DNA from: Candidatus Woesearchaeota archaeon | GTDB lineage: Archaea > Nanobdellota > Nanobdellia > Woesearchaeales > GW2011-AR4 | Direction: 5' to 3' | Assembly: GCA_016181305.1 (NCBI GenBank) | Contig: JACOZN010000017.1 | Coordinates: 1-19,850, forward strand | Length of the DNA stretch: 19,850 bases | Part shown: positions 5,498 to 19,850 of the stretch, one piece after another | Numbering within the stretch: the first letter of the stretch is position 1 | Layout: each line of letters begins with the position of its first letter | Notes under the pieces: generated by a model | Databases searched by the model: none | The model's input: the letters and a program-made list of their open reading frames with translations, nothing else | Told to the model about the DNA's origin: nothing | Position numbers and translations under genes: made by a program

Positions 5498-5522
5498 GTC
5501 AGAAATTGATTTTTATTCGTTG

Positions 5523-5581
5523 CCCTCATCCAAACTGCTGTCTTTTGGCTCTGGCTTTGCAACATCTCCAAAGAATTCCTT
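5523..5581. repeat. 59-bp exact direct repeat, copy 1 (orphan copy of the 3' end of gene 6428..6988)
   Basis: Identical to 6438-6496 by direct comparison. On the minus strand it encodes KEFFGDVAKPEPKDSSLDEG, then NE-stop at 5513-5515. Confidence 0.95.
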
Positions 5582-5639
5582 GGTTTTGTTACTGGGATTT
5601 TGGCAAACTATAAATATCCAAATCCATGCTTAAACAATA

Positions 5640-6053
5640 ATGACATTAAAATACTACATAGACACAGCTATCTGGAGAGACCTGCACGAAAACAGGAAGG
5701 ATAAATCCAAAAATCTTGGAGAACTGGCATTTGAATCACTTAAGAAAATACGAGCCAATAAAGGGAAAATCGTTTATTCGGATTTTGTTGTTGAGGAACT
5801 GTCGCGCGCTTACGACAAGCAAACTATTAACAAACTCCTTAAAGGCGCATCAGAGGCTCTAGAGAAAGTTGAAATCAATGGCATGCAATTAAAAGAAGCG
5901 GCTGATTTGTCCAAAAAACTAAACATTCCCTTTGGCGATGCTGTTCATGGGGTGCTAGCCAAAGACAATAGCGCAGTTATGGTAACAAGGGATAGGCATT
6001 TTAGAAAGTTAAAAGATAAAATCACTATCAAAAAGCCAGAAGACTTAATTTAG
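5640..6053 (+). CDS. vapC: PIN-domain ribonuclease (VapC-like toxin)
   Basis: YYIDTAIW (N-terminal Asp), VVEEL, FGDAVHG and VTRDRHF give the PIN acidic tetrad pattern. TATA box tataaata at 5609-5616. Confidence 0.9.
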   Translation: MTLKYYIDTAIWRDLHENRKDKSKNLGELAFESLKKIRANKGKIVYSDFVVEELSRAYDKQTINKLLKGASEALEKVEINGMQLKEAADLSKKLNIPFGDAVHGVLAKDNSAVMVTRDRHFRKLKDKITIKKPEDLI

Positions 6054-6311
6054 CTTAATCCCAAACTTCTTGGCGTATTCGCTGGCAACCTTATTCCTAA
6101 TCTTGTGCAGTTCCTTGTCGCTTATTTTCTTCTTTGCAGCGCCTTTAAAAGCAACTAGATGCTGCAGAACAATGTCCTTTTCTATTGTATTAAGCTTTTC
6201 CCTTACAGATTCCCTGATAAACTCTGTTCTGTTGCTGAAATGCAAAGGCTTTAAGACTGAATCTATCTTCTTTAAAACATCTTCCTGAAGCTTGAAAGTT
6301 ATAGTTTCCAT
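6045..6311 (-). CDS. vapB: CopG/NikR-like ribbon-helix-helix protein, probable VapB antitoxin
   Basis: METITFKLQEDVLKKID...SNRTEFIRESVREKL has the RHH pattern. Start placed at ATG 6311 because the TATA box and operator lie in 6313-6348. Convergent with the PIN gene, 9-nt overlap. Confidence 0.75.
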   Translation of the reverse strand: METITFKLQEDVLKKIDSVLKPLHFSNRTEFIRESVREKLNTIEKDIVLQHLVAFKGAAKKKISDKELHKIRNKVASEYAKKFGIKLN

Positions 6312-6312
6312 T

Positions 6313-6348
6313 ATATTACATGTGTAATACAATGTAATATTTAAATAT
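6313..6348 (-). promoter_or_regulatory. Promoter and palindromic operator of the RHH gene
   Basis: tattaca-tg-tgtaata (6314-6329) plus a third tgtaata half-site (6333-6339). Minus-strand tttaaata TATA box immediately upstream. Confidence 0.6.
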
Positions 6349-6427: not shown

Positions 6428-6988
6428 CTAATCTTTACCCTCATCCAAACTGCTGTCTTTTGGCTCTGGCTTTGCAACATCTCCAAAGAATTCCTTATTC
6501 TTGTCTGCATTCAAATGGACGTCCCTGATTTTGACAATGGAGTCTACAACTTTATCATAAGAAGTAGTCCCTATTATTACTCCGCTGTGGACAATAAGAT
6601 TGCCGGACTGGTCTTCCTGCTTTGTCTGTATGCGCACGAATTTTCCAAAGATGTTCTCAATTAAATCAAAATCATAATGATAAAACTTGCCTTGTATATG
6701 GCAATCCTCCAGCTCGTCCAGAACCTTATTGAAATTATAGACAGCAGTGTCACCTCGCTCCATTTTCAGGCAAAATGCGCTGTCAGCCAGCTTCTCCAGA
6801 TGGTGCCATATTGTTGAATGCCCAAGCTTTATTGCCTTGTCTATCTGGCTGATTGTAACTCCTTGGGGGTTTAGCTCAACAATCTGCTTCAGCAAATTGG
6901 TTACGTATTCGCCTTTCTGGTAGGTTGACAGTGCAGCATACTGCTCTTTTCCGAGTATGTTTTCAGGCAGGTTCAGCTTTAATACCAT
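6428..6988 (-). CDS. Winged-helix DNA-binding protein with a C-terminal PUR-repeat-like domain (paralog 1)
   Basis: wHTH GVTISQIDKAIKLGHSTIWHHLEKL...ERGDTAVY. The C-terminal YDFDLIENIFGKFVRIQT matches the PUR signature. GAGAGG RBS and ttataaat TATA upstream. Confidence 0.8.
   Translation of the reverse strand: MVLKLNLPENILGKEQYAALSTYQKGEYVTNLLKQIVELNPQGVTISQIDKAIKLGHSTIWHHLEKLADSAFCLKMERGDTAVYNFNKVLDELEDCHIQGKFYHYDFDLIENIFGKFVRIQTKQEDQSGNLIVHSGVIIGTTSYDKVVDSIVKIRDVHLNADKNKEFFGDVAKPEPKDSSLDEGKD
6438..6496. repeat. 59-bp exact direct repeat, copy 2 (inside the 3' end of gene 6428..6988)
   Basis: Identical to 5523-5581; offset 915 bp. Confidence 0.95.
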
Positions 6989-7450
6989 AAGGCGCCTCTC
7001 TGGACATTTATAACGTTAATCATTTTTATAAGTTGTGTGTATAGTCTTTGACACAACCAATCATATGCATTCACTGGCTATGACACTTATAGCCTGAATG
7101 GCTGCTGTGAACTGATTGTGATGATTCAGCTTTTCCATGGATAATCAGTAAATCAGCCATGCATATGATTTACTGCTATGAGCGTGCAAGACAGCCATCC
7201 GAATGGCAGCAACAGGCAACTCTTTCCTCTTTTCGTTAAAGAGCTTGAATATAAAGTTTATGGTTGTTATGGGCATTTTGCCGCTTCCCATCCTGAATTC
7301 AAATTGCCTCTGCCTTGCTCTTAAAGGTTAATGGCAAAATTTACGCAAGTATGCAACACATACATAGCATCTGAATAATCAGCACACTGCTCATTTGACT
7401 GCTTATGTGAGATGCTTGTCGGAATAAGCATCCAAATGCATTTGAATGAA

Positions 7451-7912
7451 TTAATGCTTCTTTACTTTGCCCAGCTCTTTTACCAAATCATCTATAATCT
7501 CAACAGGAATATGGATGCCTTTGCATACAGCTTGGTTGCCCATCCTGTTCTCCCTTTTCTCCTGTATGCAGATAAATTTGCCTTCGCTGTTCTCCACAAG
7601 GCTTATGGCGTACTTGGACTTGCCTTTGCCAAGCTCATTCAAATGGCTCATGCTGCCTGAAGGATAATAAACATCAGTATTGCCTTTGGATACTTTGCTG
7701 CATTGGGCTGTGCAGCTAAGCACTTCAAGATGGTGCCATATGGTTGAATATGTAAGCCCTGTAGCTTCCTTTATCTGGGAAATTGTGACTCCTGTGGGAT
7801 TAAGCGCAATTGTCTTCTTCAGAACATTGCCTACGTACTCTTCCTTCTCCTTTGCAGGCAAAGACTTGAAAGTAGTTTTTTCCAATATGTCCGGAGGCAG
7901 GTTTATAGCCAT
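7451..7912 (-). CDS. Winged-helix DNA-binding protein with a C-terminal PUR-repeat-like domain (paralog 2)
   Basis: wHTH GVTISQIKEATGLTYSTIWHHLEVL...SKGNTDVYY. C-terminal YAISLVENSEGKFICIQE...KGIHIPVEIIDDLVKEL. Collinear with 6428..6988. Confidence 0.8.
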   Translation of the reverse strand: MAINLPPDILEKTTFKSLPAKEKEEYVGNVLKKTIALNPTGVTISQIKEATGLTYSTIWHHLEVLSCTAQCSKVSKGNTDVYYPSGSMSHLNELGKGKSKYAISLVENSEGKFICIQEKRENRMGNQAVCKGIHIPVEIIDDLVKELGKVKKH

Positions 7913-7920
7913 TTTAGAGC

Positions 7921-7972
7921 CATTTGAATAAATATTTGAATAGTCATTTGAATGATTATATATAAATTTTTT
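7921..7972 (-). promoter_or_regulatory. Promoter of 7451..7912 overlapped by three ATTTGAAT boxes at 12-bp period
   Basis: The minus strand reads aaaaaa-tttatata (BRE/TATA, ~7959-7972), then boxes at 7946, 7934 and 7922, then the ATG at 7912. Confidence 0.7.
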
Positions 7973-8355
7973 GATAAAATGGCGTTTTTTTATGAGCTAG
8001 CAACCATATAAATGTCATAACGCCTGTAAACTAAAACAGGAAAATTTTATGGATATTGCACTTGGCATAACCTAAACTATAAAAATAAAAAAAATGATAT
8101 TAACATCAGTAATAAATTCACTTGACATTATAGCTTACGCAATAGATGTAGAAAAAATAAAATTAATTCAAACAATCAATTGCATAAGATTAACTGATAA
8201 AATTATATTTACACCAACTATAAAATTTATCTTGGCTTTAACAATTATAGCTCAAATAAAAATTTAAAACAAATTTTCTTCTATAAAATCCATGGAAATT
8301 ATAAGATTAATTCTTGCAAATTCAAGCCGTTTGCAATACTACGAGTGGAAAATTT

Positions 8356-8392
8356 CATTTGAATAAATATTTGAATAGTCATTTGAATGATT
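8356..8392. repeat. Second exact copy of the 37-bp triple-ATTTGAAT element
   Basis: catttgaataaatatttgaatagtcatttgaatgatt is identical at 7921-7957 and 8356-8392 (offset 435). Confidence 0.95.
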
Positions 8393-8582
8393 GACGAGTA
8401 AAACTTGTTAAATCAAGCCATAAAAGAAGGAATACCCAAAAATCACGAGAGCGACTTTGCGCTTCCCAAACTAAAAGAAAGTAATCCGCTTGTGATTATT
8501 TGCCTGAAAGCTCGGGAAGACGGGCGTTAGATTAATTCAAAACAGAAAACTAAATATATAAGTTATGAAATTTATGGATATT

Positions 8583-8780
8583 ATGGCAGACACTACAATA
8601 TCAGTGAGCAAGGGCTTCCATGACTGGCTGAAAGGCAAAGGCAGGAAAGGAGAGAGCTATGAAGATATAATCAGAAGAATGCTAAAGCCGGAATTTCTCA
8701 ATGAGCTTGGCTCTAAAACATCTTCATCTGATGATGAGTCTGGCGCATCTGAAACAGATGCAAGCCTAGAGAACTTGTAG
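8583..8780 (+). CDS. Stand-alone RHH protein (archaeal antitoxin-like) with an acidic/Ser tail
   Basis: MADTTISVSKGFHDWLKGKGRKGESYEDIIRRML matches the TTI.VS...L...K..GES..D.I.R.L pattern. The TATA box aatatataag at ~8553-8562 favours a near-leaderless start at 8583 over 8565. Confidence 0.75.
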   Translation: MADTTISVSKGFHDWLKGKGRKGESYEDIIRRMLKPEFLNELGSKTSSSDDESGASETDASLENL

Positions 8781-8794
8781 TTTTTCTTTAAAAT

Positions 8795-8870
8795 ATACTT
8801 ATATAATATTTATTTTAACTTATAAAAATAAAAAAATACTTAAATAATATATAATAATACTTAATTAATA
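8795..8870. promoter_or_regulatory. Phased ATACTTANNTAATA boxes, cluster 1
   Basis: Exact matches at 8795, 8836 and 8857; degenerate copy near 8816. Confidence 0.55.
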
Positions 8871-9133
8871 TTATAACTTTGTTTAAATTCTTCTATTACA
8901 ATACCAAATAGAAAGCTTTATATATTACTTACTTACAAGTTATGTGTAACTAATAGGTGATAGATTTAAGTACAATTATTAAAACTTACATAATATTCGT
9001 AAAACAGCTCTAAACTTTGGCTTTGCAGCTAGTTAGCTTGTTCTTACTGCAAGCCATGGGGAGTTTGGCGCCCAACACAATTGAATTGAAACAAAATGAA
9101 ACAGAGACTAACATACTTTAATTTCTTTAATAA

Positions 9134-9189
9134 ATACTTATTTAATATAATAAAATACTTAGATAATATATTTTTATACTTATAAAGTA
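9134..9189. promoter_or_regulatory. Phased ATACTTANNTAATA boxes, cluster 2, directly upstream of 9193
   Basis: Matches at 9134 and 9155, and variant ATACTTATAAAGTA at 9176; exact 21-bp period. Confidence 0.6.
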
Positions 9190-9192
9190 AAT

Positions 9193-9699
9193 ATGCCATC
9201 AAAAGAGGAGTTTGTTGAAAAGAAGCTTTTAGATACTTTGAGCTATCTAAGAGAGCAAGGCTTTAGCTCTGAAGAGATTATTGAGCTGATAAGCAAGCTG
9301 TTGAGGGTGGAGGCAAAGGAAGAAGTCAAAGTTCCTATTTCTGTGTTCAACAATGATTACCTAAGTTCTCTGGAAAACATCGTAAAATACCTTCGGGAAA
9401 ACTTGCTTCTAAGCTTCAAGCAGATTGCAGAGCTTACAAACAGGAATGAAATAGCCTTGGCGGTAACGTACAGGAATGCCAAGAAAAAGATGGAGGCAAA
9501 GTTTGTCGTTACTGAAATATCGCCTTATTCAATTCCTGTTTCTATTTTGAAAGACAGGAACATCAGCGTTCTTGAAAATATTGTTGCTTACCTGAAGGAT
9601 AATTTTGGATTGGCGTATCACAAAATTGCTGTTCTGCTGAATCGTGACGACAGGACTATTTGGACTGTGTATCAAAGGGCAAAAAAGAAGAAAAAATGA
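9193..9699 (+). CDS. Tandem-repeat HTH DNA-binding protein (two sigma-region-4-like HTH units)
   Basis: Internal duplication: VPISVFNNDYLSSLENIVKYLRENLLLSFKQIAELTNRN...YRNAKKK versus IPVSILKDRNISVLENIVAYLKDNFGLAYHKIAVLLNRD...YQRAKKK. Confidence 0.8.
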   Translation: MPSKEEFVEKKLLDTLSYLREQGFSSEEIIELISKLLRVEAKEEVKVPISVFNNDYLSSLENIVKYLRENLLLSFKQIAELTNRNEIALAVTYRNAKKKMEAKFVVTEISPYSIPVSILKDRNISVLENIVAYLKDNFGLAYHKIAVLLNRDDRTIWTVYQRAKKKKK

Positions 9700-11148: not shown

Positions 11149-14100
11149 GTGCCCGAGAAAACAATAACAAACAGCCTGGAGTACAAGGCTGGAACTGATT
11201 TTGACGCAAATGATGACGGGGTTGAGCCGACAACAGGAATTACAGACATGACTGTTGAGAATTCCGCATTCACCTGGGATGCTGATGAAACAAAGCTCTG
11301 CACGAGATGGAAGGTTGACAGCATAGAGGATGCAAAAAGCACAACTATATGCTACGGCAGCGCTAAATGCTGCAACTTTATTGACTTGGAGCCTTCAAGG
11401 GACAGCTGGAAAGGGGTGTTTTACTCGACATACGGGCAGTACGGGGCAACGCTGAATAATGTAGTAAGCTCACAAATTATTTATGCAGACTACAGCCTGG
11501 GCATAGACGAGCCTTTTGCCGAAATATACTACTCGGAATGGAAAGAGCTGCCTGCCAAGTATTACTTTGAGTTGATAGAATTTGAGAATGTATGCATTGA
11601 CACGTGCATATTAAGCGGCTTTAATGACACAAGCTACAAGCTTATTTTTGAGATTGAAAATGCTGTGCTGAATCTCGACTTTTTGACTTACTCCATTTCA
11701 GAGGAGATAAGCAATGTGCCGGTAAGCCTTGAGGTTAAAGACGACACTGGGGAGATTTCAGGCAGCTATACTTTGTACAGGGACAACGAGCCTGTCCAGA
11801 TTACAGAAGGATTTGTAGAGCCTGACTATTACAACATTGAAGTTACGCCTGTACAAAATGTAATCGACAAGCTGGTTATTGAGAATGCAAACCTTACAAA
11901 GCCGGTGACTGCAAGCATCGGCATTGACAATGTAAGCAGGGAAATCATAATAGAAAATGTTGACGCAAAGAAAAGGTATGCCATTAATCTCGAGGAGCTT
12001 GAGTTTGAGAAAGCCATTTTGACAGCAACTGCAAGCGCAAATTCATTATGGAAATGCAGGCAGTGGGACTATGACAGCGAAGTTTGCTTCGGCACATGGG
12101 AGAAAGTAAAGGACTTGACGCCCGGGCAGCAGTATGATGTAACATTAACGGCAAACGACCCGGGGTTTATCGAAGGAGACACAAACATAACAATTGCTCC
12201 TGTGAACATAACCAATGCAACAATAAACATAACAGGCTTGGCTTTGGCTAAGGACATCCCAAATATAACTATTGCCATTAACAAAAATGCAACGATTGAC
12301 TTGAACGAATATTTCTCCAACATCGATGAAAATACAATATTCACTTACTTTGGGCAGGAAGGCATAAGCATTTTGTTTGAGGGCAGCACGGCAACTATAA
12401 TGCCGGCAGAGAATTTCACAGGAACAATTTATACGTATATAACAGCGGCAAAAGGCAGCGAAACAGCAATCTCAAATGTTTTTGCAGTTAATATAGTGAA
12501 TGTAACAATTGATATAACACCCACAATAATTCTTGAGAAAAAGGATTTCATGCTTGACGAGGATGTTGAGATTGGCTTTGAGTACCTGACAAAGCAGGAA
12601 TTAATTGAAAATACCAGATGGAAAGAGGAATATGAAGTTTACGAAGAAACAACAGACAAAACAGAAGAGGAATTGGAATTATTGAGGGGGAAAATTTCAG
12701 AAGAGGAAAAGCTGCTTTCCGAGGCTGAAAAAGCAGTTAAAAAGCAAAAGAAAAAATGGCAGAAAGCAGATGACGCCATAGAAACATTTGTCTATGACAA
12801 TTCCGGCAATTTAAAAGATGTGGATGTTGAAATAGAGGAATTGAGGGAGGGCAAGTTTGGCGTTAAAATACCAAAGCCAAGAAGCTTTAAGGCTGGAAGA
12901 TACACACTGAAGCTGGATTTGACAAAAGATGGAATTGCTTACTCTTCACAGCAGGACTTTACATGGGGAGTTTTGGCAATTAATGTCAACAAATCAATTT
13001 ACCTGCCTAATGAGGACAGCTTCATCGGAATTGGGGTTCTTGATGATGCCGGCAGAGTAGTTTGCAATGCAGATGTAACTTTGGATATTATTAATCCTCT
13101 AAATCAAAAAACAACACTGACAACTGCAAACGGCGACATTTCAATTTCCCCTGAATGCGCTTATTTGGGAGTTACAGAGCTGCCTGATTACTACACAGGC
13201 TATAAAGTTGGCGGTGTTGGAGCTTATGCAATGAACCTGACTGCTGTGACTGCAAATGGCGTAAGAAGCATATCGGATAACTTTACTGTTCAAAGCTCTG
13301 TTGCATTTGATGTTGCGAGAAAAGGGCCGACAAGGGTTTATCCAAGAGCGCTTTACACAATGAAAATACCGATAATTGCAAACCAAGACTACAACGGCTT
13401 AGTCAATGAGTATGTTCCCTCTTCATTTGCAATCACTCCCCAGGATGGCTTAAGTGTTGCCGCATCTGGCGGCACTTCCATCTTGTCATGGAATGTTGAC
13501 ATGAAGCAAAACGATAAAATTGAATTATCTTACGAGTTTGACGCTCCCGACACTTCTCCTGAGTTTTATCTGCTTGGCCCTCTTGACATTGGCAATTTCA
13601 AAGAAGCAAGGCAGTGGCAGATTGCGAATGACCAGGCAGGAGAATTTAATTTTACCTATCCAGACGCAGGCGCTCCCGGAATGAACCTTGTCGTGCACAT
13701 GGTTGGAACCGGGTTTGCCCCTAATGACGCTGTTACAACAAATTCCTCGGGCAATATAACAGTTGGGCCGATAATTGTCACGGATGCAGACGGCAATTAT
13801 GTTACAACAAATGGCAGAGTGCTGACAACTGTGTTTTACATTCATCCAAATGCAACCCAGCAGGATGTGCAGGTCAATGTAAGCGGAATAAGGCTGCCAA
13901 GCGTGTTCAAGATTATAAGCCCTGTGAGGGACAGCGGCAATTTCACAGGCAAAACCTCAGGAGTCTTTGGCATAGGCGACACAAAAAATGGCACAAGAAC
14001 TGCAAGAGGGACAATTGTATTGGATTCGCTGATAATACCTGCAGGAGTCACTGTAAACATCAGCATGTCGGATACTGATTCTGCGCTTCCCGGAATACAA

Positions 14101-15627
14101 GGATATTTCCCAGTTACAATTATTGTTGATGGGATTGTGAATATTTCAGGGACATTGAATGTTAGTGGAAGCGCGGGAAGGGACGCAACTGGAGAAGGCG
14201 GAGGCGGAGGCGGGCACGGAGGGCCTGGAGGCGGTGGCGGAGGTGCAGGAGGAGGTGACAGGGCAACTGCAGGAACAATGGGCTCTGGCGGAAATGGATT
14301 TACTGGTGGTGGTGGAGGAGGATGCGAAAGCGGCACTAACTGCGTCAGAGGAGGGGATGGAGGAAACGGCACAGGAACTTTAGGAGGAATAGCGGCAAAT
14401 GACGGCGGGGCAATAGGCGGAAACTCCACATCGCCAAAAGTTGCAGGAGGCGGAGGCTCAGGCGTCGCTACAACAGGCGGAGGAGGTGGCGGTGGAACGG
14501 GATTCTTCTTCGGCTCTAGCGGAGCAGGCTCTGGCGGTGCTGGCGGCTCCGGAGGAGGGGGAGGTGGCGCTGGCGGAATTTCCCATGGCGGAGGAGGAGG
14601 CTTTGGAATATCAGGAGCAGATGGCGCTACAGGAACTGGCGGCTCTGGTTATGGCAGTATAGCCTTGATTCCAATTGCGGGCGGCTCTGGAGGAGGGGGA
14701 GGAGGAAGCAACACTGCTGGTGGAGGCGGAGCAGGGGGAGGGGGAGGGGCTGTTTTGATATTCTCTAATCAAAATATTACTGTTATGTCAACCGGGCAGA
14801 TTTTGGCAGATGGAGGCAATGGAGTTAACTCGGCTAACGGAGATGGCGGAGGAGGCTCCGGAGGAGGAATTGTGTTGCAGGCTGCAAATGTCTCACTTGA
14901 AGGAACATTGAGTACAAATGCAGGAACTGCTGGCGGAGGAAGCGGAGGTGCAGGCGGCTTAGGCAGAATTAGGGTTGATGGGTTGGACAACCCTGTAGCC
15001 CAGGCTAACTTTGGGTTTGCAGGAAGCAACTTCACAGGAGTTGCAATAAAGAATATTACTGATACCAGCATAGGCGGAACTGCGAATGCTAGTGCCAATA
15101 TAGTTGTCTTTGTGAAGAACCAAACAAGAGGCGGTGCAAGCAGCGTAAACACTACATTTACAGGAACAGCGGATGCTAACGGGCAGTTTGACATAGCAGT
15201 TACGTGGTATACGGGCAAAAATTTCATTGCGGTAATGCAAAATTCAACCAATGACGCCTACACTGTAATGAGCTCTGCTGCTGTTGCAACATATGATTTT
15301 GTTGTTGTGCCTGACAATACATTGCCGAGGATAAATGCTTCGTTAAACAACTCAGTGCCTTTCCAGGGAGAGATTGTAAACATGACAGCGAATGTCAGCG
15401 ACAATTCCGGATTGAGCTTCTGCCAGTTTGTTGACAACCAGTCATTGCCTAACGGCGCAAAGAACTTTTTCAATAAAACGGTCAGCGGCAAAAATGACCG
15501 GTGCTCGCAGAATTACACGATTGCGCTGCCCATTGGAAGCGTGATTAACTTTACGGTTATTGTCAATGACACGTCAACAGCAGTTGCAGGCGGCGGTGCA
15601 GGCTCCTCCGGATACAATATTGCCTAG
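11149..15627 (+). CDS. Giant surface protein, main fragment (Ig-like domains, conserved FTWGVLAIN region, glycine-rich domain); the frame is open from ~11080
   Basis: 1492-aa ORF rich in N-X-S/T sequons. Upstream of the GTG the frame reads LTAKIEFTATDGEKATTKEITLIVPEK. The Gly-rich block is at ~14170-14970. Confidence 0.85.
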   Translation: MPEKTITNSLEYKAGTDFDANDDGVEPTTGITDMTVENSAFTWDADETKLCTRWKVDSIEDAKSTTICYGSAKCCNFIDLEPSRDSWKGVFYSTYGQYGATLNNVVSSQIIYADYSLGIDEPFAEIYYSEWKELPAKYYFELIEFENVCIDTCILSGFNDTSYKLIFEIENAVLNLDFLTYSISEEISNVPVSLEVKDDTGEISGSYTLYRDNEPVQITEGFVEPDYYNIEVTPVQNVIDKLVIENANLTKPVTASIGIDNVSREIIIENVDAKKRYAINLEELEFEKAILTATASANSLWKCRQWDYDSEVCFGTWEKVKDLTPGQQYDVTLTANDPGFIEGDTNITIAPVNITNATINITGLALAKDIPNITIAINKNATIDLNEYFSNIDENTIFTYFGQEGISILFEGSTATIMPAENFTGTIYTYITAAKGSETAISNVFAVNIVNVTIDITPTIILEKKDFMLDEDVEIGFEYLTKQELIENTRWKEEYEVYEETTDKTEEELELLRGKISEEEKLLSEAEKAVKKQKKKWQKADDAIETFVYDNSGNLKDVDVEIEELREGKFGVKIPKPRSFKAGRYTLKLDLTKDGIAYSSQQDFTWGVLAINVNKSIYLPNEDSFIGIGVLDDAGRVVCNADVTLDIINPLNQKTTLTTANGDISISPECAYLGVTELPDYYTGYKVGGVGAYAMNLTAVTANGVRSISDNFTVQSSVAFDVARKGPTRVYPRALYTMKIPIIANQDYNGLVNEYVPSSFAITPQDGLSVAASGGTSILSWNVDMKQNDKIELSYEFDAPDTSPEFYLLGPLDIGNFKEARQWQIANDQAGEFNFTYPDAGAPGMNLVVHMVGTGFAPNDAVTTNSSGNITVGPIIVTDADGNYVTTNGRVLTTVFYIHPNATQQDVQVNVSGIRLPSVFKIISPVRDSGNFTGKTSGVFGIGDTKNGTRTARGTIVLDSLIIPAGVTVNISMSDTDSALPGIQGYFPVTIIVDGIVNISGTLNVSGSAGRDATGEGGGGGGHGGPGGGGGGAGGGDRATAGTMGSGGNGFTGGGGGGCESGTNCVRGGDGGNGTGTLGGIAANDGGAIGGNSTSPKVAGGGGSGVATTGGGGGGGTGFFFGSSGAGSGGAGGSGGGGGGAGGISHGGGGGFGISGADGATGTGGSGYGSIALIPIAGGSGGGGGGSNTAGGGGAGGGGGAVLIFSNQNITVMSTGQILADGGNGVNSANGDGGGGSGGGIVLQAANVSLEGTLSTNAGTAGGGSGGAGGLGRIRVDGLDNPVAQANFGFAGSNFTGVAIKNITDTSIGGTANASANIVVFVKNQTRGGASSVNTTFTGTADANGQFDIAVTWYTGKNFIAVMQNSTNDAYTVMSSAAVATYDFVVVPDNTLPRINASLNNSVPFQGEIVNMTANVSDNSGLSFCQFVDNQSLPNGAKNFFNKTVSGKNDRCSQNYTIALPIGSVINFTVIVNDTSTAVAGGGAGSSGYNIA
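15496..15594. repeat. 99-bp exact direct repeat (second copy at 15794-15892)
   Basis: gaccggtgctcgcag...gttgcaggcggc is identical in both copies. The offset is 298 bp, which is not a multiple of 3. Confidence 0.95.
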
Positions 15628-15928
15628 GATTAATGCTTCTCTTGATGTGACAAGCCCCATCAAGAACCAGCTGGTTAACCTAACAGCCAATATCACAGAT
15701 GAAAGCGGGCTTTCATTCTGCCAGTTCATAGACAACCAGAGCCTGCCGAATGGGGCAAAGCAGTTTATTAACAAAACAGTTGCTGGAACAGACGACCGGT
15801 GCTCGCAGAATTACACGATTGCGCTGCCCATTGGAAGCGTGATTAACTTTACGGTTATTGTCAATGACACGTCAACAGCAGTTGCAGGCGGCATGCTTCA
15901 AAGTTTTGGCAAACAATGTGACTATTGA
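15560..15928 (+). CDS. Giant surface protein fragment: one Ig-like repeat (meaningful part ~15596-15892)
   Basis: VQAPPDTILPRINASL...VIVNDTSTAVAGG is a paralog of the preceding domain PDNTLPRINASL...VIVNDTSTAVAGG. Confidence 0.75.
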   Translation: MSMTRQQQLQAAVQAPPDTILPRINASLDVTSPIKNQLVNLTANITDESGLSFCQFIDNQSLPNGAKQFINKTVAGTDDRCSQNYTIALPIGSVINFTVIVNDTSTAVAGGMLQSFGKQCDY

Positions 15929-18900
15929 CTGCCATGGGTTTGAGGTTAATTACTCTCAATCTGTTGTTGGGTATGGTGTGAACATTTCAAGATATAATTA
16001 CACTACAATAAGAAGCTGTTATGTTACGCAGGGCTCAGGCTCAACATTTTCTTATGGAGTTTACGTACTCAATTCAAGCAATTCTATATTTTATAATAAT
16101 AGTGTACAAGTCAGAGGCAGCAGCGGATATGGAATGTATTTAGTGTCCAGTACGCATAGCAGCATGATTTATAACAATAACATAACAATTAGAGGTGCAA
16201 ATGCCTATAGCATATACCTATTTGACAATGCCTATAATAATTCAATTTATAGCAACATTATAACAAATACCGGGCTGAATGGGATACTCCTAAACTCGTA
16301 TGCTTATAACAATTCTATTTACAGCAATATAATTACACTTGGCAGCTTAGTTGGAGGCAGTGGATTGTACTTGCTTGCGAATGTCTATAATAATTCTATT
16401 TACGGCAATACTGTAACTACTAGCGCAAGCGCTGCTTATGCGCTGCGTTTAACATCAACTGTCTACAGCAATCAGATTTACAACAATAACTTAACAACTT
16501 CAAATTCTGATAGCTATGGGGTTTATTTGAATAACGATATTTTCAATAATACGATTTATGGCAACAATATAACAACGAACAATGCTGTTGGCTCTTATAG
16601 TATTTACATGCTAAGGGATATAAATAACAATACATTCTACAGAAACGCAATTTCTTCATTAGCAGCAGGAGTTGTTGTTAATGGAAGCACTTTAATAGGA
16701 GGCGAGGAAACAAGATTCAACACTTTCACCAATGATACAATAGTTCCATGCACAGCAGGATGCGCAGGCAATTATCAGGATATTATCTTGACTGCAAATG
16801 CTACTGACATTACATTCACAAATGTTTCATTCAACAAGTCAAGGATTGCGTTTGTAGCATATGACCCATCAGTGCCGATTGAGAAAAACAACCTAACAAT
16901 TAGGTGGTTCCTGAATGTCAATGTAACTAACAGCACAAATAATGCTGCTATGATTGGTGCAGAGGTTGTGATTAACAACTCACTTGGAACGAATGTGTTT
17001 ACAGGCAGCACAAACTCTGATGGAAGTATTGCAACTGTTACAGTCACAGAGTTCACTATGAATGGCTCTGCGCCGTTTAATGTCGATACTGACACCTGTG
17101 TTGGGATAAGCAATGTCAACATAACCTGCTTTACTCCTATGAATATAACGGTTAATATCACAGGCTACGACAGCAACTTTACAAGCGTGGATGTCAACAG
17201 GAGCAAGCTGGTGAATGTAAGCTTGGGCATTACTGCTATTCTGGACACAACTGCGCCAATAGTGAATGCCACTTTGAACAAATCCCTGCAATTGATCGAG
17301 TTTAACGATATCATTAACCTGACAGCCAATACAACTGACGAAACAGGGTTAAGCTTTGGGCAGATCATTGTGAATGATACTGGATTTGTGAGGTACTTTA
17401 ACTTTAGCCTTGGGGGTGCAACAACTGCCCAGTTCAGCCAGAACATAAGTGTAAGCTGCTCGAATTGCATCATTAACTTCACAGCAAGGGCTAATGACAC
17501 AAGCAATAACTTCAGGACAAATGATACTATTGTAAGTGTAACTCCTGAAAAAGAGATTACTAATTGCACAAATCTTGACACGGCAAATACAAACTACAGC
17601 TTGACGCAGGATGCAAACTCCGGAGGGACTTGCTTCTATGTGCTGGCCAACAATGTTGGTTTAGACTGCCATGGATTTGAGATTAACTACTCTCAATCTG
17701 TTGTTGGGTATGGAGTAAATATCTCAGGCTATAATTATTCAACGATAAGGAGCTGCAATATTGTGCAGGCTGATTTGGCTGCTGATAATTCAAATGCTTA
17801 TGGGGTTTATATATTTAATAACGTCATTAATAATAATGTGTTTAATAATACGATAACAACTATTGGGAGCCAAGGTTATGATGTTTATTTGTTTTCAGGA
17901 GCCTATAACAATTCCGTTTATGGTAATAATCTGGTATACATCAGCGGAAGCTTTGGCATAGGGGTTTACCTAAATTCAAATGTTTATAACAATTCGGTTT
18001 ACGGGAATAACATAAACACCAGCGGCAGCAGCGCCTATGCAGTTTACCTAAATTCAAATGTTTATAACAATTCGGTTTACGGGAATAATATAACTAGCAT
18101 TGAGATTGGCGTATACTTATTTTCAAGCACTTTTAACAACGAAATTTATGGTAACACAATAACAACCACAGGCAATTCTAATGCTTATGGAGTAAACTTG
18201 CAGTCAACGGCTTACAGCAACAATATACATGATAATGTAATAACCACTAACGGGAACAGCGGAAGCGGCATAAGGCTGTTTAATACAGCTATTTACGCCA
18301 ACAGTATCTACAACAATAACATAACGACAAGGGGTGGCACTGCCTATGGAATTGTTTTAAATGCAAATGTATTCAGCAACAATATCTATGGCAACAACAT
18401 AACGACAAGGGGTGGCACTTCATCCGGCATTTCCATGGCTACAACTATTTATAACAATTCCTTTTATGGGAATGTAATAACAACCACCGGTAGTACTGGA
18501 TATGGAATGGATTTAAGTGGCTATAATAATTCCGTTTATGGGAATGTAATAACAACCAAGGGCAGTAGTGGGTATGGGATGCTTTTAAGTGGCTATAATA
18601 ATTCCGTTTACAGCAACAACATAACAACATACAACACAAGCAGTTATGGAATTTATCTAAATAGCAATGTTTTCAACAACACAATCTATGACAACAATAT
18701 AACAACAAAAAACATGACAGGCTCTTATGGAATTTATTTGTTAAATAGAGTTAATAACAATACTTTCTACAGGAACTCGATTTCTTCACTGGCTATCGGG
18801 ATTTTAGTTAACGGAAGCGGGCAAACAGCTGCACAAACAACAAGATTCAACACCTTCACCAACGACACAATCGTTCCATGCACTTCAGGTTGTGCATCAA

Positions 18901-19850
18901 ATTACCAAGACATTGTTCTGACTGCAAATGCGACTGACATCACGTTCACAAATGTTTCATTCAACAAGTCAAGGGTTGAGTTTGTGCCAAGAAGTCTTTC
19001 TGTTCCTGTTGAGAAGAACAACATGACAGTCAGATGGTTCCTTGCTGTGAATGTAACAAAAAACGACAATACAGCGCTGCAGGGGGCTGAAGTTGTTATT
19101 AATGATTCCTTCAACGTCAATGTATTTACAGGCAATACTGATGCGACTGGTAGCATTTCTCCGCAGACAGTTGCCGAGTACATCCAGAACGGAAGCGTTC
19201 CGTTTGCAGCAGGCGATACTTGCGTTGGCATAAATAATATAAATATAACATGCTTTACTCCATACAACATAACAATCAATCTTACCGGTTACGAAAGAAA
19301 TTTCACAAGCGCAGAAGTCAACCGAAGCAGGCTCGTTAATGTAAGCCTGGGCTTGGATACAACTGCTCCTGTGGTGAATACGAGCCTAAATAAGTCATTG
19401 ACAGGCATACTCCAGAGCGATATTATCAATCTGAGTGCAAATGCAACAGACAGGATAGGATTAAGCGTTGGACAGGTAATAGTTAATGACACTGGGTTTG
19501 TAAGGTATTTCAACTTCAGCTTATCTGGAACTAGTGCCCAATTCAGCCAAAATATAACTATAAGCTGCGCTGCAGGCTGTGTCATTAACTTCACTGCAAG
19601 GGTTAATGACACTAATGGCAATGTTAGAACAAATGATACAATAATTACAGTCGCAACAACGCCAGACACGACATTCCCTGTTGTTAACACATCTATTAAC
19701 AACACCAATCCACTTGTAAATGATGTTATTAACTTTACTGGAAATATAACGGATGATGTTGGTTTGCTGAGCGCCAATTGGACTTATAATGTGAGCGGTG
19801 TATTAACTAAGCTGAATTACAGCTTTGCAGGAGGAACTGCAATTGCTACT
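15894..19850 (+). CDS. Giant surface protein, distal fragment: two duplicated modules of right-handed parallel beta-helix (NosD/PbH1-type) plus Ig-like domains; runs off the window
   Basis: Hand translation of frame 3 shows no stop from 15894 to 19850 (1319 codons; in-frame ATG at 15864). It starts CFKVLANNVTIDCHG, and module 2 starts CFYVLANNVGLDCHG at 17631. Not listed in the ORF track, presumably because it lacks a stop. Confidence 0.9.

Follow-up and report, generated by a model that had tools for sequence, protein, structure and literature searches.

The question raised by this locus is what a single PUR-like repeat does when it is fused to a winged helix in an archaeal protein. The window analyzed here is the complete 19,850-bp contig (C22; JACOZN010000017.1) of the 1.07-Mb genome, 78% complete, of a Candidatus Woesearchaeota archaeon. 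Its minus strand carries two genes, named type A (P0002) and type B (P0001), and each encodes a winged helix-turn-helix (wHTH) followed by one repeat with the PUR/PC4-like fold. Together with a conserved box at the type A promoter, this architecture makes it probable that the two proteins are dimeric autorepressors with the PUR repeat as their pairing module.

Two Paralogs Joining a Winged Helix to a Single PUR/PC4-Like Repeat

An earlier note, made from the letters of the DNA, had claimed two paralogous open reading frames (ORFs) in this region, and both are present on the minus strand. The type A gene (7451–7912, minus strand) encodes 153 aa, comprising a winged helix and one PUR repeat, and matches the family profile with an expect value (E) of 1.1e-52. 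The type B gene (6428–6988, minus strand) encodes a paralog of 186 aa with the same architecture and a profile match at E 2.4e-49. In BLASTP the two proteins share 42% identity across 153 residues (E 3e-37). The peptides that had been quoted from their C-terminal domains were located where they had been placed, YDFDLIENIFGKFVRIQT at residues 105–122 of P0001 and YAISLVENSEGKFICIQE at residues 101–118 of P0002. In the type B gene, the wHTH is encoded by 6728–6988, the PUR repeat by 6515–6727 and an acidic tail of 28 residues, C-terminal to the last helix, by 6431–6514, all on the minus strand.

The AlphaFold2 model of P0002, which was built on a 72-sequence alignment, is confident over the full length (pLDDT 93.5, pTM 0.79). 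Four helices and a two-strand wing lead through a two-residue turn into four long antiparallel strands, and a helix closes the chain. Residues 1–86 (7655–7912, minus strand) form the N-terminal helices, the winged helix and the wing hairpin, with a recognition helix that reads ...STIWHHLE.... According to DSSP on the model, this part holds helices at residues 12–16, 20–37, 44–51 and 55–67 and strands at 71–76 and 79–84, and residues 22–86 superpose on winged helices of the Zalpha, MarR, ArsR and PadR types with Z of about 9–10.5. The N-terminal part is a winged helix, as the note had proposed, but its resemblance to ArsR is a generic one. The HTH_5 model (PF01022) scores 14.0 and 16.3 bits for the two proteins against a curated cut-off of 22, the ArsR/SmtB model NF033788 scores 15.1 and 12.1 bits against a cut-off of 55, and HTH_40 gives a sub-threshold match to the N-terminal part of type A. 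Scans of both proteins with Pfam, NCBIfam, PHROGs and PADLOC returned sub-threshold winged-helix matches, including parts of Csa3/CARF-wHTH proteins, and assigned no family. The winged helix is basic, with a family mean net charge of +3.2.

Residues 87–153 of type A (7454–7654, minus strand) form the single PUR/PC4-like repeat and carry the motif Y-x5-E-N-x2-G-K-F-x2-I-Q-E. Strands at 87–96, 99–108, 111–121 and 127–136 are followed by a helix at 137–152, and a model of the C-terminal 67 residues alone (pLDDT 94.2) agrees with this layout, which is that of a PUR repeat, namely four antiparallel strands and then a helix within about 60–70 residues. When the domain was compared with the Protein Data Bank (PDB) by Foldseek, the first 28 matches listed were all PC4-like or PUR chains. 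The template-modeling score was 0.81 for the PC4 homolog 5a4n, 0.74 for human PURA (8cht) and 0.65–0.68 for Borrelia Pur-alpha (3nm7/3n8b), and the list also holds PC4, the T5 PC4-like protein and PUR repeat III. A second, Foldseek-independent and unbiased comparison covered 48,161 PDB representatives, and the nine best of these were again all PC4-like or PUR proteins (Z 9.9–6.2). The best match was 5a4n (Z 9.9, rmsd 1.8, 66 of 68 residues aligned), followed by PUR repeat III of fly (5fgo, Z 8.4) and human (8chw, Z 8.3), Borrelia Pur-alpha (3n8b, Z 8.2, rmsd 2.5 over 65 residues; Foldseek probability 1.00), the T5 protein (7.5), repeats I-II of fly Pur-alpha (3k44, 7.4), PC4 (7.2) and MoSub1 (6.2), while YdbC and MRP1/2 rank lower. 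The model and both searches therefore agree with the earlier note on a PUR/PC4 fold, and the outcome that the note had named as a refutation, a domain that does not take up this fold in a model, did not occur. A COMMD-like kinship (cf. PMC13392464) was also considered and dropped, as the domain has four strands, its partner is a winged helix and not an HN domain, and no COMMD protein is among the top structural matches.

Sequence Link to PUR Proteins

The fold is accompanied by a sequence signal. When the family profile was searched against the PDB, the best match outside winged helices was human PURA (E 0.0027, profile positions 99–157 against chain residues 93–152). A profile of the C-terminal domain alone also placed PURA first (E 0.027), and both PURA repeats I and II align at YxxxxxENxxGxFxxI. 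The string of human PURA repeat II that the note had given proved exact, for the 8chu/8cht chain reads ...YYMDLKENQRGRFLRIRQT and aligns to this motif. The Pfam model PurA (PF04845) is matched at E<0.01 by 6 of the 72 family members. Among them, the C-terminal domains of two same-genus proteins, L024 and L025, reach 26.7 and 26.8 bits against the PurA cut-off of 25, with E 4e-6 and over the whole repeat.

Other families are silent. PC4 (PF02229) has no match among 72 full-length or 26 C-terminal sequences, so the likeness to PC4 is one of fold alone, and neither PC4 nor Fur nor any other non-PUR family surfaces by sequence for the C-terminal domain. DUF2128 likewise finds no sequence match in the family. 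A six-frame search of the whole genome with Pfam PurA and DUF3276 (PF11680) gave no match.

A Conserved Box at the Type A Promoter

The DNA in front of the type A gene carries the second line of evidence. Iteron-like boxes had been claimed beside the two genes, and they are real and non-random: the window has 15 copies of ATTCAAAT where 2.8 would be expected, and 0 of 200 shuffles reach this number. Genome-wide there are 86 copies, and the contig of the window is enriched about 10-fold over the genome average. Phased arrays of the box are found at just two places of the genome, 7921–7957 and 8356–8392.

The TATA box of the type A promoter, TTTATATA (7959–7966, minus strand), was read from the sequence; an A-rich run like a B recognition element precedes it, and the same 'aaaaaatttatata' stands upstream of type A orthologs. 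Operator array 1 (7921–7957, minus strand) lies between this TATA box and the type A ATG and consists of three ATTCAAAT boxes at a 12-nt phase. With its flanks, the first box forms the full 12-bp palindrome TCATTCAAATGA, an inverted repeat TCATT-CA-AATGA, which suits a dimer of winged helices. Operator array 2 (8356–8392, minus strand) is an exact 37-nt copy of array 1 (100% identity), 435 nt upstream and behind a decayed TATA-like stretch. A single box, TTCATTCAAATGCA (7440–7447, minus strand), stands 3 nt past the type A stop, at the start of the A-B spacer, and a box just beyond the type A stop is also seen in two related loci (L011 and L016).

The position of the box is conserved. Of 16 same-genus orthologs of type A, 10 have the palindrome TCATTCAAATGA starting 3–4 nt past the TATA box, and two other genera share this arrangement. 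Counted from the start of the TATA box, the forward box begins after 13–14 nt in 10 of these 16 genes, a density about 11-fold above the background of the locus. One of the two other genera also has three boxes at a 12-nt phase, the last ending on the ATG. In more distant clades, the palindromes that stand next to the TATA box are different ones, among them TTGGTAACCAA and ATTTAAT repeats. Archaeal repressors that bind between the TATA box and the start point prevent the polymerase from being recruited; the location of the box between TATA and ATG would thus suggest negative autoregulation.

Family, Distribution and Relationship of A and B

Clustering at the 50% level leaves 113 representatives for P0002, almost all of 150–180 aa and matching end to end, and P0001 has 41 close relatives; the close homologs carry Candidatus Woesearchaeota (DPANN) names at NCBI. 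The 72-member profile collects 254 clusters at E<=1e-5, all of them without precomputed Pfam domains, under source names such as "hypothetical protein", "winged helix-turn-helix transcriptional regulator" and "ArsR family regulator". Distant members come from Nitrososphaera and Thaumarchaeota (Nitrososphaerota), and the neighbors in the ESM Atlas are unnamed archaeal clusters from Woesearchaeota, Aenigmatarchaeota, Nanobdellota and Methanobacteriota. The spread is patchy. About 22 of 36 same-genus genomes have a full-length copy, and in a phylum-wide sample of 300 high-quality genomes from 225 genera only 8 do. A scan of viral contigs with P0002 found no relative. Longer or fused forms (327–2000 aa), including A-B fusions or two-repeat chains, were not found either, which is weak evidence.

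The fusion of wHTH and PUR had been put forward as undescribed, and this agrees with the databases and the literature searched. Pfam and NCBIfam hold no family annotation for it, and no paper in the literature searched describes it, describes an archaeal PUR protein or joins a PUR domain, archaea and a winged helix. Previous descriptions of the PUR repeat come solely from eukaryotes and a small number of bacteria. On the data of 2012, PUR and PC4 proteins were stated to be absent from Archaea (PMC3575825), and the main text of a 2020 review of PC4-like domains leaves archaea unmentioned (PMC7549692).

In a maximum-likelihood tree, A and B are sister and distinct clades (support for B 100/99). 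Every type B gene found immediately follows a type A gene that has the same orientation, an order seen in the genome of the window, in G011, G014, G016, G022 and G025, and in G270 of another genus. Type A occurs without B in many genomes, so A must also work without B, as a homodimer. In one related locus (L007, 1966–2172, plus strand; G017:C2), a 68-aa ORF right after type A is limited to the four strands of a type B PUR repeat. It lacks the winged helix, its C-terminus is scrambled, and it is probably a decaying type B gene.

Proposed Pairing by the PUR Repeat and Repression

A single repeat is half of a PC4-like or PUR domain, which points to a role in pairing. The solved Borrelia Pur-alpha is a homodimer that forms one PUR domain from single repeats (PMC2954813), and "type II" PC4-like domains are intermolecular dimers of single repeats (PMC7549692). 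Repeat III of Pur-alpha is chiefly a dimerization unit, with DNA binding more than 30-fold weaker (PMC4764581). As single repeats of this fold are known to dimerize and repeat III mainly does so, the economical reading is that the archaeal repeat pairs two chains.

The analysis establishes that A and B are paralogs, what fold they have, that they belong to the family, and that the box is enriched and kept in position. On this basis, we infer dimerization through the repeat, repression and any pairing of A with B as follows. The winged helix would read double-stranded DNA (dsDNA), joined by a two-residue turn to a PUR repeat through which two chains would intertwine into one PUR domain. The paired chains would offer one winged helix to each TCATT half-site of TCATTCAAATGA. 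Since three copies of the palindrome or box follow one another at a 12-nt phase as far as the start codon, dimers bound to them would lie across the start-site region and block the pre-initiation complex, giving negative autoregulation. B has a recognition helix near-identical to that of A (STIWHHLE), and its target is therefore probably the same box, where, paired with itself or with A, it would probably bind and modulate A. A/B heterodimers are plausible, being compatible with the dependence of B on A and with the opposite net charges of the two repeats.

Several observations weigh against this reading. The box is missing in 6 of the 16 same-genus type A genes, and the type B promoter of the window is without it. 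The logic of repression, as we infer it, draws on the position of the box and on general knowledge of archaeal repressors. Neither P0001 and P0002 nor their C-terminal parts match Pfam PurA (cut-off 25 bits) or DUF3276, and the direct sequence signals to PUR proteins are all weak (E 0.003–0.03). Finally, N108 and F113 of the repeat are strongly conserved, so that the repeat may do more than pair chains.

The last point concerns the residues by which PUR proteins hold single strands. In fly Pur-alpha, single-stranded DNA (ssDNA) is contacted by K138, N140 and R142, while F145, without which there is no unwinding, stacks on a base (PMC4764581). When residue conservation was counted across the 72-member family alignment, N108 (fly N140) was kept in 59 of 72 sequences and G111 in 61 of 72, and position 113 (fly F145) was F in 48 and Y in 7 of the 72. 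Of the signature that PUR repeats carry in strands 2–3, K-E-N-x-R-G-R-F-[LIV]-x-I, type A retains E107, N108, G111, F113 and I116. The K position of K-N-R is replaced by V, I or L throughout the family, and the R position is E, F, L or D. The net charge of the PUR part averages –0.6 across the family (range –6 to +7), with +3 in P0002 and –4 in P0001, where the tail adds –3.

These residues matter for a dual-mode alternative, which we regard as unlikely. Here the winged helix would dock on the double-stranded boxes, and the PUR domain, A/A or A/B, would grip ssDNA or RNA like Pur-alpha or PC4, either stabilizing or creating a melted start region (activation or bubble trapping) or binding the nascent transcript. 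The PUR/PC4-like fold speaks for it, as do the conserved N108, G111 and F113, the mildly basic type A repeat and the fact that the boxes overlie the region that melts at initiation. However, the K and R contacts are replaced across the family, the repeat is on average close to neutral, type B is acidic in both repeat and tail, and PUR repeat III has the same fold and mainly dimerizes. Because K and R are replaced and the domain is uncharged or acidic on average, its surface does not look like a conserved single-strand-binding surface, and the strand opening that the note had proposed finds no support. In the furthest-reaching reading, the proteins would be the first PUR family of Archaea, and A and B would build an asymmetric heterodimeric PUR domain, as repeats I and II of Pur-alpha do inside a single chain. 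This domain would grip a displaced strand or nascent RNA at the promoter, with the winged helices on the flanking duplex. Such a reading is distinctly doubtful; if true, it would be a one-protein device coupling operator recognition to control of the transcription bubble.

The weakness of the direct signals concerns a different matter, homology against convergence on a common small fold. Under convergence, which we hold to be improbable, the C-terminal domain would merely resemble PUR/PC4 and would be a lineage-specific dimerization or sensor domain of a Fur-like or PadR-like regulator; the name PUR would then say nothing about descent or function. The proteins of the window themselves fall below the PurA cut-off, PC4-like folds are believed to have evolved more than once (PMC7549692), Zur and FurB also align with the whole-chain model (3mwm, Z 9.9, rmsd 2.9, 95 residues), and the type A clade conserves C67, C115, H117 and C130. 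On the other side, L024 and L025 exceed the PurA threshold over the full repeat, the best PDB sequence matches outside winged helices are PURA, at ENxxGxF in both repeats, and no PC4, Fur or other family is found by sequence. As the two proteins of the window miss PurA and their relatives pass, the PUR membership of P0001 and P0002 is transitive and supported by the fold. Homology of the C-terminal domain to PUR repeats is thus likely, though not proven.

The cysteines and histidines belong to a set of residues conserved in the type A clade only. In 117 type A sequences these are W59, H60, H61, C67 (92/117), C115 (104/117), H117 (101/117) and C130 (94/117). These positions, 59–61, 67, 115, 117 and 130 of P0002, fall within 7523–7738 on the minus strand. 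P0002 itself has Q at position 117, and the wider family has A, Y, Q or K at the type A-specific positions. The conserved Cys and His of this clade hint at redox or metal sensing.

Locus Neighborhood and the Question of an Origin

Upstream of type A and divergent from it lies a gene for a small protein of 71 aa (8565–8780, plus strand), with a match to Pfam DUF7557 at E 0.0042, below the cut-off. In tblastn searches it adjoins type A in 14 related loci. The protein has the N-terminus MADTTISVSKGFHDWLKGKGRKGESYEDIIRRML followed by a Ser/Asp/Glu-rich tail; M7 (MADTTI...) is the probable conserved start, and the gene may be regulated together with type A as its partner. The gene order of a membrane protein (mem107), B, A, the 71-aa gene and a tandem-HTH gene is kept in relatives, where the gap between type A and the 71-aa gene is about 80–200 nt. 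In the window this gap contains a 398-nt segment (7958–8355, about 26% GC) between the two exact 37-nt direct repeats that are the operator arrays; relatives lack the segment and array 2.

The earlier note had offered a transcription factor or a Rep-like initiator. The first part is supported by the adjacent boxes and their conserved promoter position. In the second, the two three-box arrays would be iterons flanking a 398-nt AT-rich unwinding element, the origin of a small replicon or integrated element, and this is highly improbable. The two exact 37-nt arrays do bracket the AT-rich segment, and the box density on the 19.85-kb contig is about 10 times the genome average. However, array 2 and the AT-rich tract are peculiar to this genome and absent in relatives that are otherwise syntenic at A/B, and no replication gene is recognized in the window. 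What relatives do conserve is the box between TATA and ATG, where a repressor would sit. The arrays form direct repeats, the GC-skew profile has no turning point there, and no viral relatives were found. Synteny with relatives indicates an ordinary conserved neighborhood and argues against an origin.

The 398-nt segment has no second copy in the genome or in related loci. It is an insertion between the copies of a duplicated target, the second such event at the locus. The other concerns the end of the type B gene, whose last 76 nt are duplicated 915 nt away (5514–5589 and 6429–6504; 92% identity, 59 nt exact). The duplicated ends bracket a toxin-antitoxin pair, a PIN gene at 5640–6053 (plus strand) and a ribbon-helix-helix (RHH) gene at 6045–6332 (minus strand). 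In two related loci (L010 and L012), the membrane-protein gene stands directly beside type B with no PIN/RHH cassette, which therefore seems to have been inserted recently, its target being duplicated in the process. The 462-nt A-B spacer (6989–7450) has no copy elsewhere in the genome or in related loci, and its 48-aa ORF is not conserved.

A dispersed element of about 50 nt, AATCACGAGAGCGACTTT and AAAGTAATCCGCTTGTGATT separated by about 19 variable nt, is present in at least 10 copies in the 1-Mb genome. One copy is in the window (8444–8497, plus strand), and others are at C11:12008–12079, C20:26706–26759, C5:25663–25724, C5:65461–65517, C2:65812–65873, C19:28579–28632, C15:14963–15020, C15:1113–1170 and C1:16510–16583 of the same assembly (G000). 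It has invariant stems, a variable loop and one compensatory pair. No Rfam family matches this non-coding element, which may represent a family of small RNAs or resemble a repetitive extragenic palindrome (REP). Rfam (E up to 1) and tRNA scans of the window returned nothing, and a scan for sigma-70 promoters and terminators was uninformative, the host being archaeal.

Further along, an AT-rich box about 39 nt long, with the core ATACTTA-N-TAATAT, recurs at least four times in two clusters at 8784–9182, upstream of the tandem-HTH gene (9193–9699), whose 168-aa product gives a Sigma70_r4-like match. The right half of the contig is filled by two very large ORFs, one of 1492 aa (11149–15627, plus strand) with no Pfam match and one of more than 1331 aa (15858–19850, plus strand) with right-handed beta-helix and NosD-like repeats. 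Both presumably encode surface proteins.

Significance

The wHTH-PUR protein is a new domain architecture made from two known modules, and it is probably the first PUR-repeat family recognized in Archaea. A sequence-recognizable PUR repeat is thereby placed in Archaea, where it has a new fusion partner, a dsDNA-reading winged helix. With about 150 aa, it offers a small system for asking what a lone PUR repeat contributes: pairing, single-strand binding, or both. Several hundred proteins of DPANN and Nitrososphaerota that are now "hypothetical" or generic "wHTH regulator" entries gain names, a likely operator and a testable autoregulatory circuit. If the repeat is merely a dimerization device, the result is a modest addition to the architectures of archaeal regulators.

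Comparison With Known Systems

Among DNA-binding regulators, Fur/Zur, PadR/LmrR, ArsR/SmtB and MarR share with the archaeal proteins an N-terminal winged helix, a small size and palindromic operators that overlap their own promoter. Fur/Zur is also similar in its overall layout of a wHTH and a beta/alpha dimerization part, as in the alignment to 3mwm, although neither protein has a sequence match to the Fur family in Pfam. These families differ in that their pairing modules are helices or Fur-type domains and not a PUR repeat, and the archaeal proteins reach the threshold of none of their models.

PC4/Sub1 and its homologs (BPSL1147, 5a4n; T5, 4bg7; YdbC, 2ltd) provide the best structural match and are type II homodimers of single repeats, but they are stand-alone ssDNA binders and show no sequence signal to the archaeal family. 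Borrelia burgdorferi Pur-alpha (BB0047; 3n8b/3nm7; DUF3276/PF11680) likewise has one PUR repeat per chain, of four strands and a helix. It has no winged helix, however, and binds (GGN)n ssDNA, while the archaeal repeat is without the basic K and R contacts. With eukaryotic Pur-alpha/PURA (PF04845; 8cht, 3k44, 5fgp, 5fgo), the signature Y-x5-E-N-x2-G-x-F-[LIV]-x-I of repeats I and II is shared, and it is over the repeat III region that L024 and L025 pass the Pfam cut-off. PURA has three repeats per chain, no winged helix and a basic K-N-R/F surface, and it binds ssDNA and RNA with unwinding, whereas the archaeal proteins carry one repeat fused to a dsDNA reader, retain only the N and the F of this surface and have a net charge of about 0.

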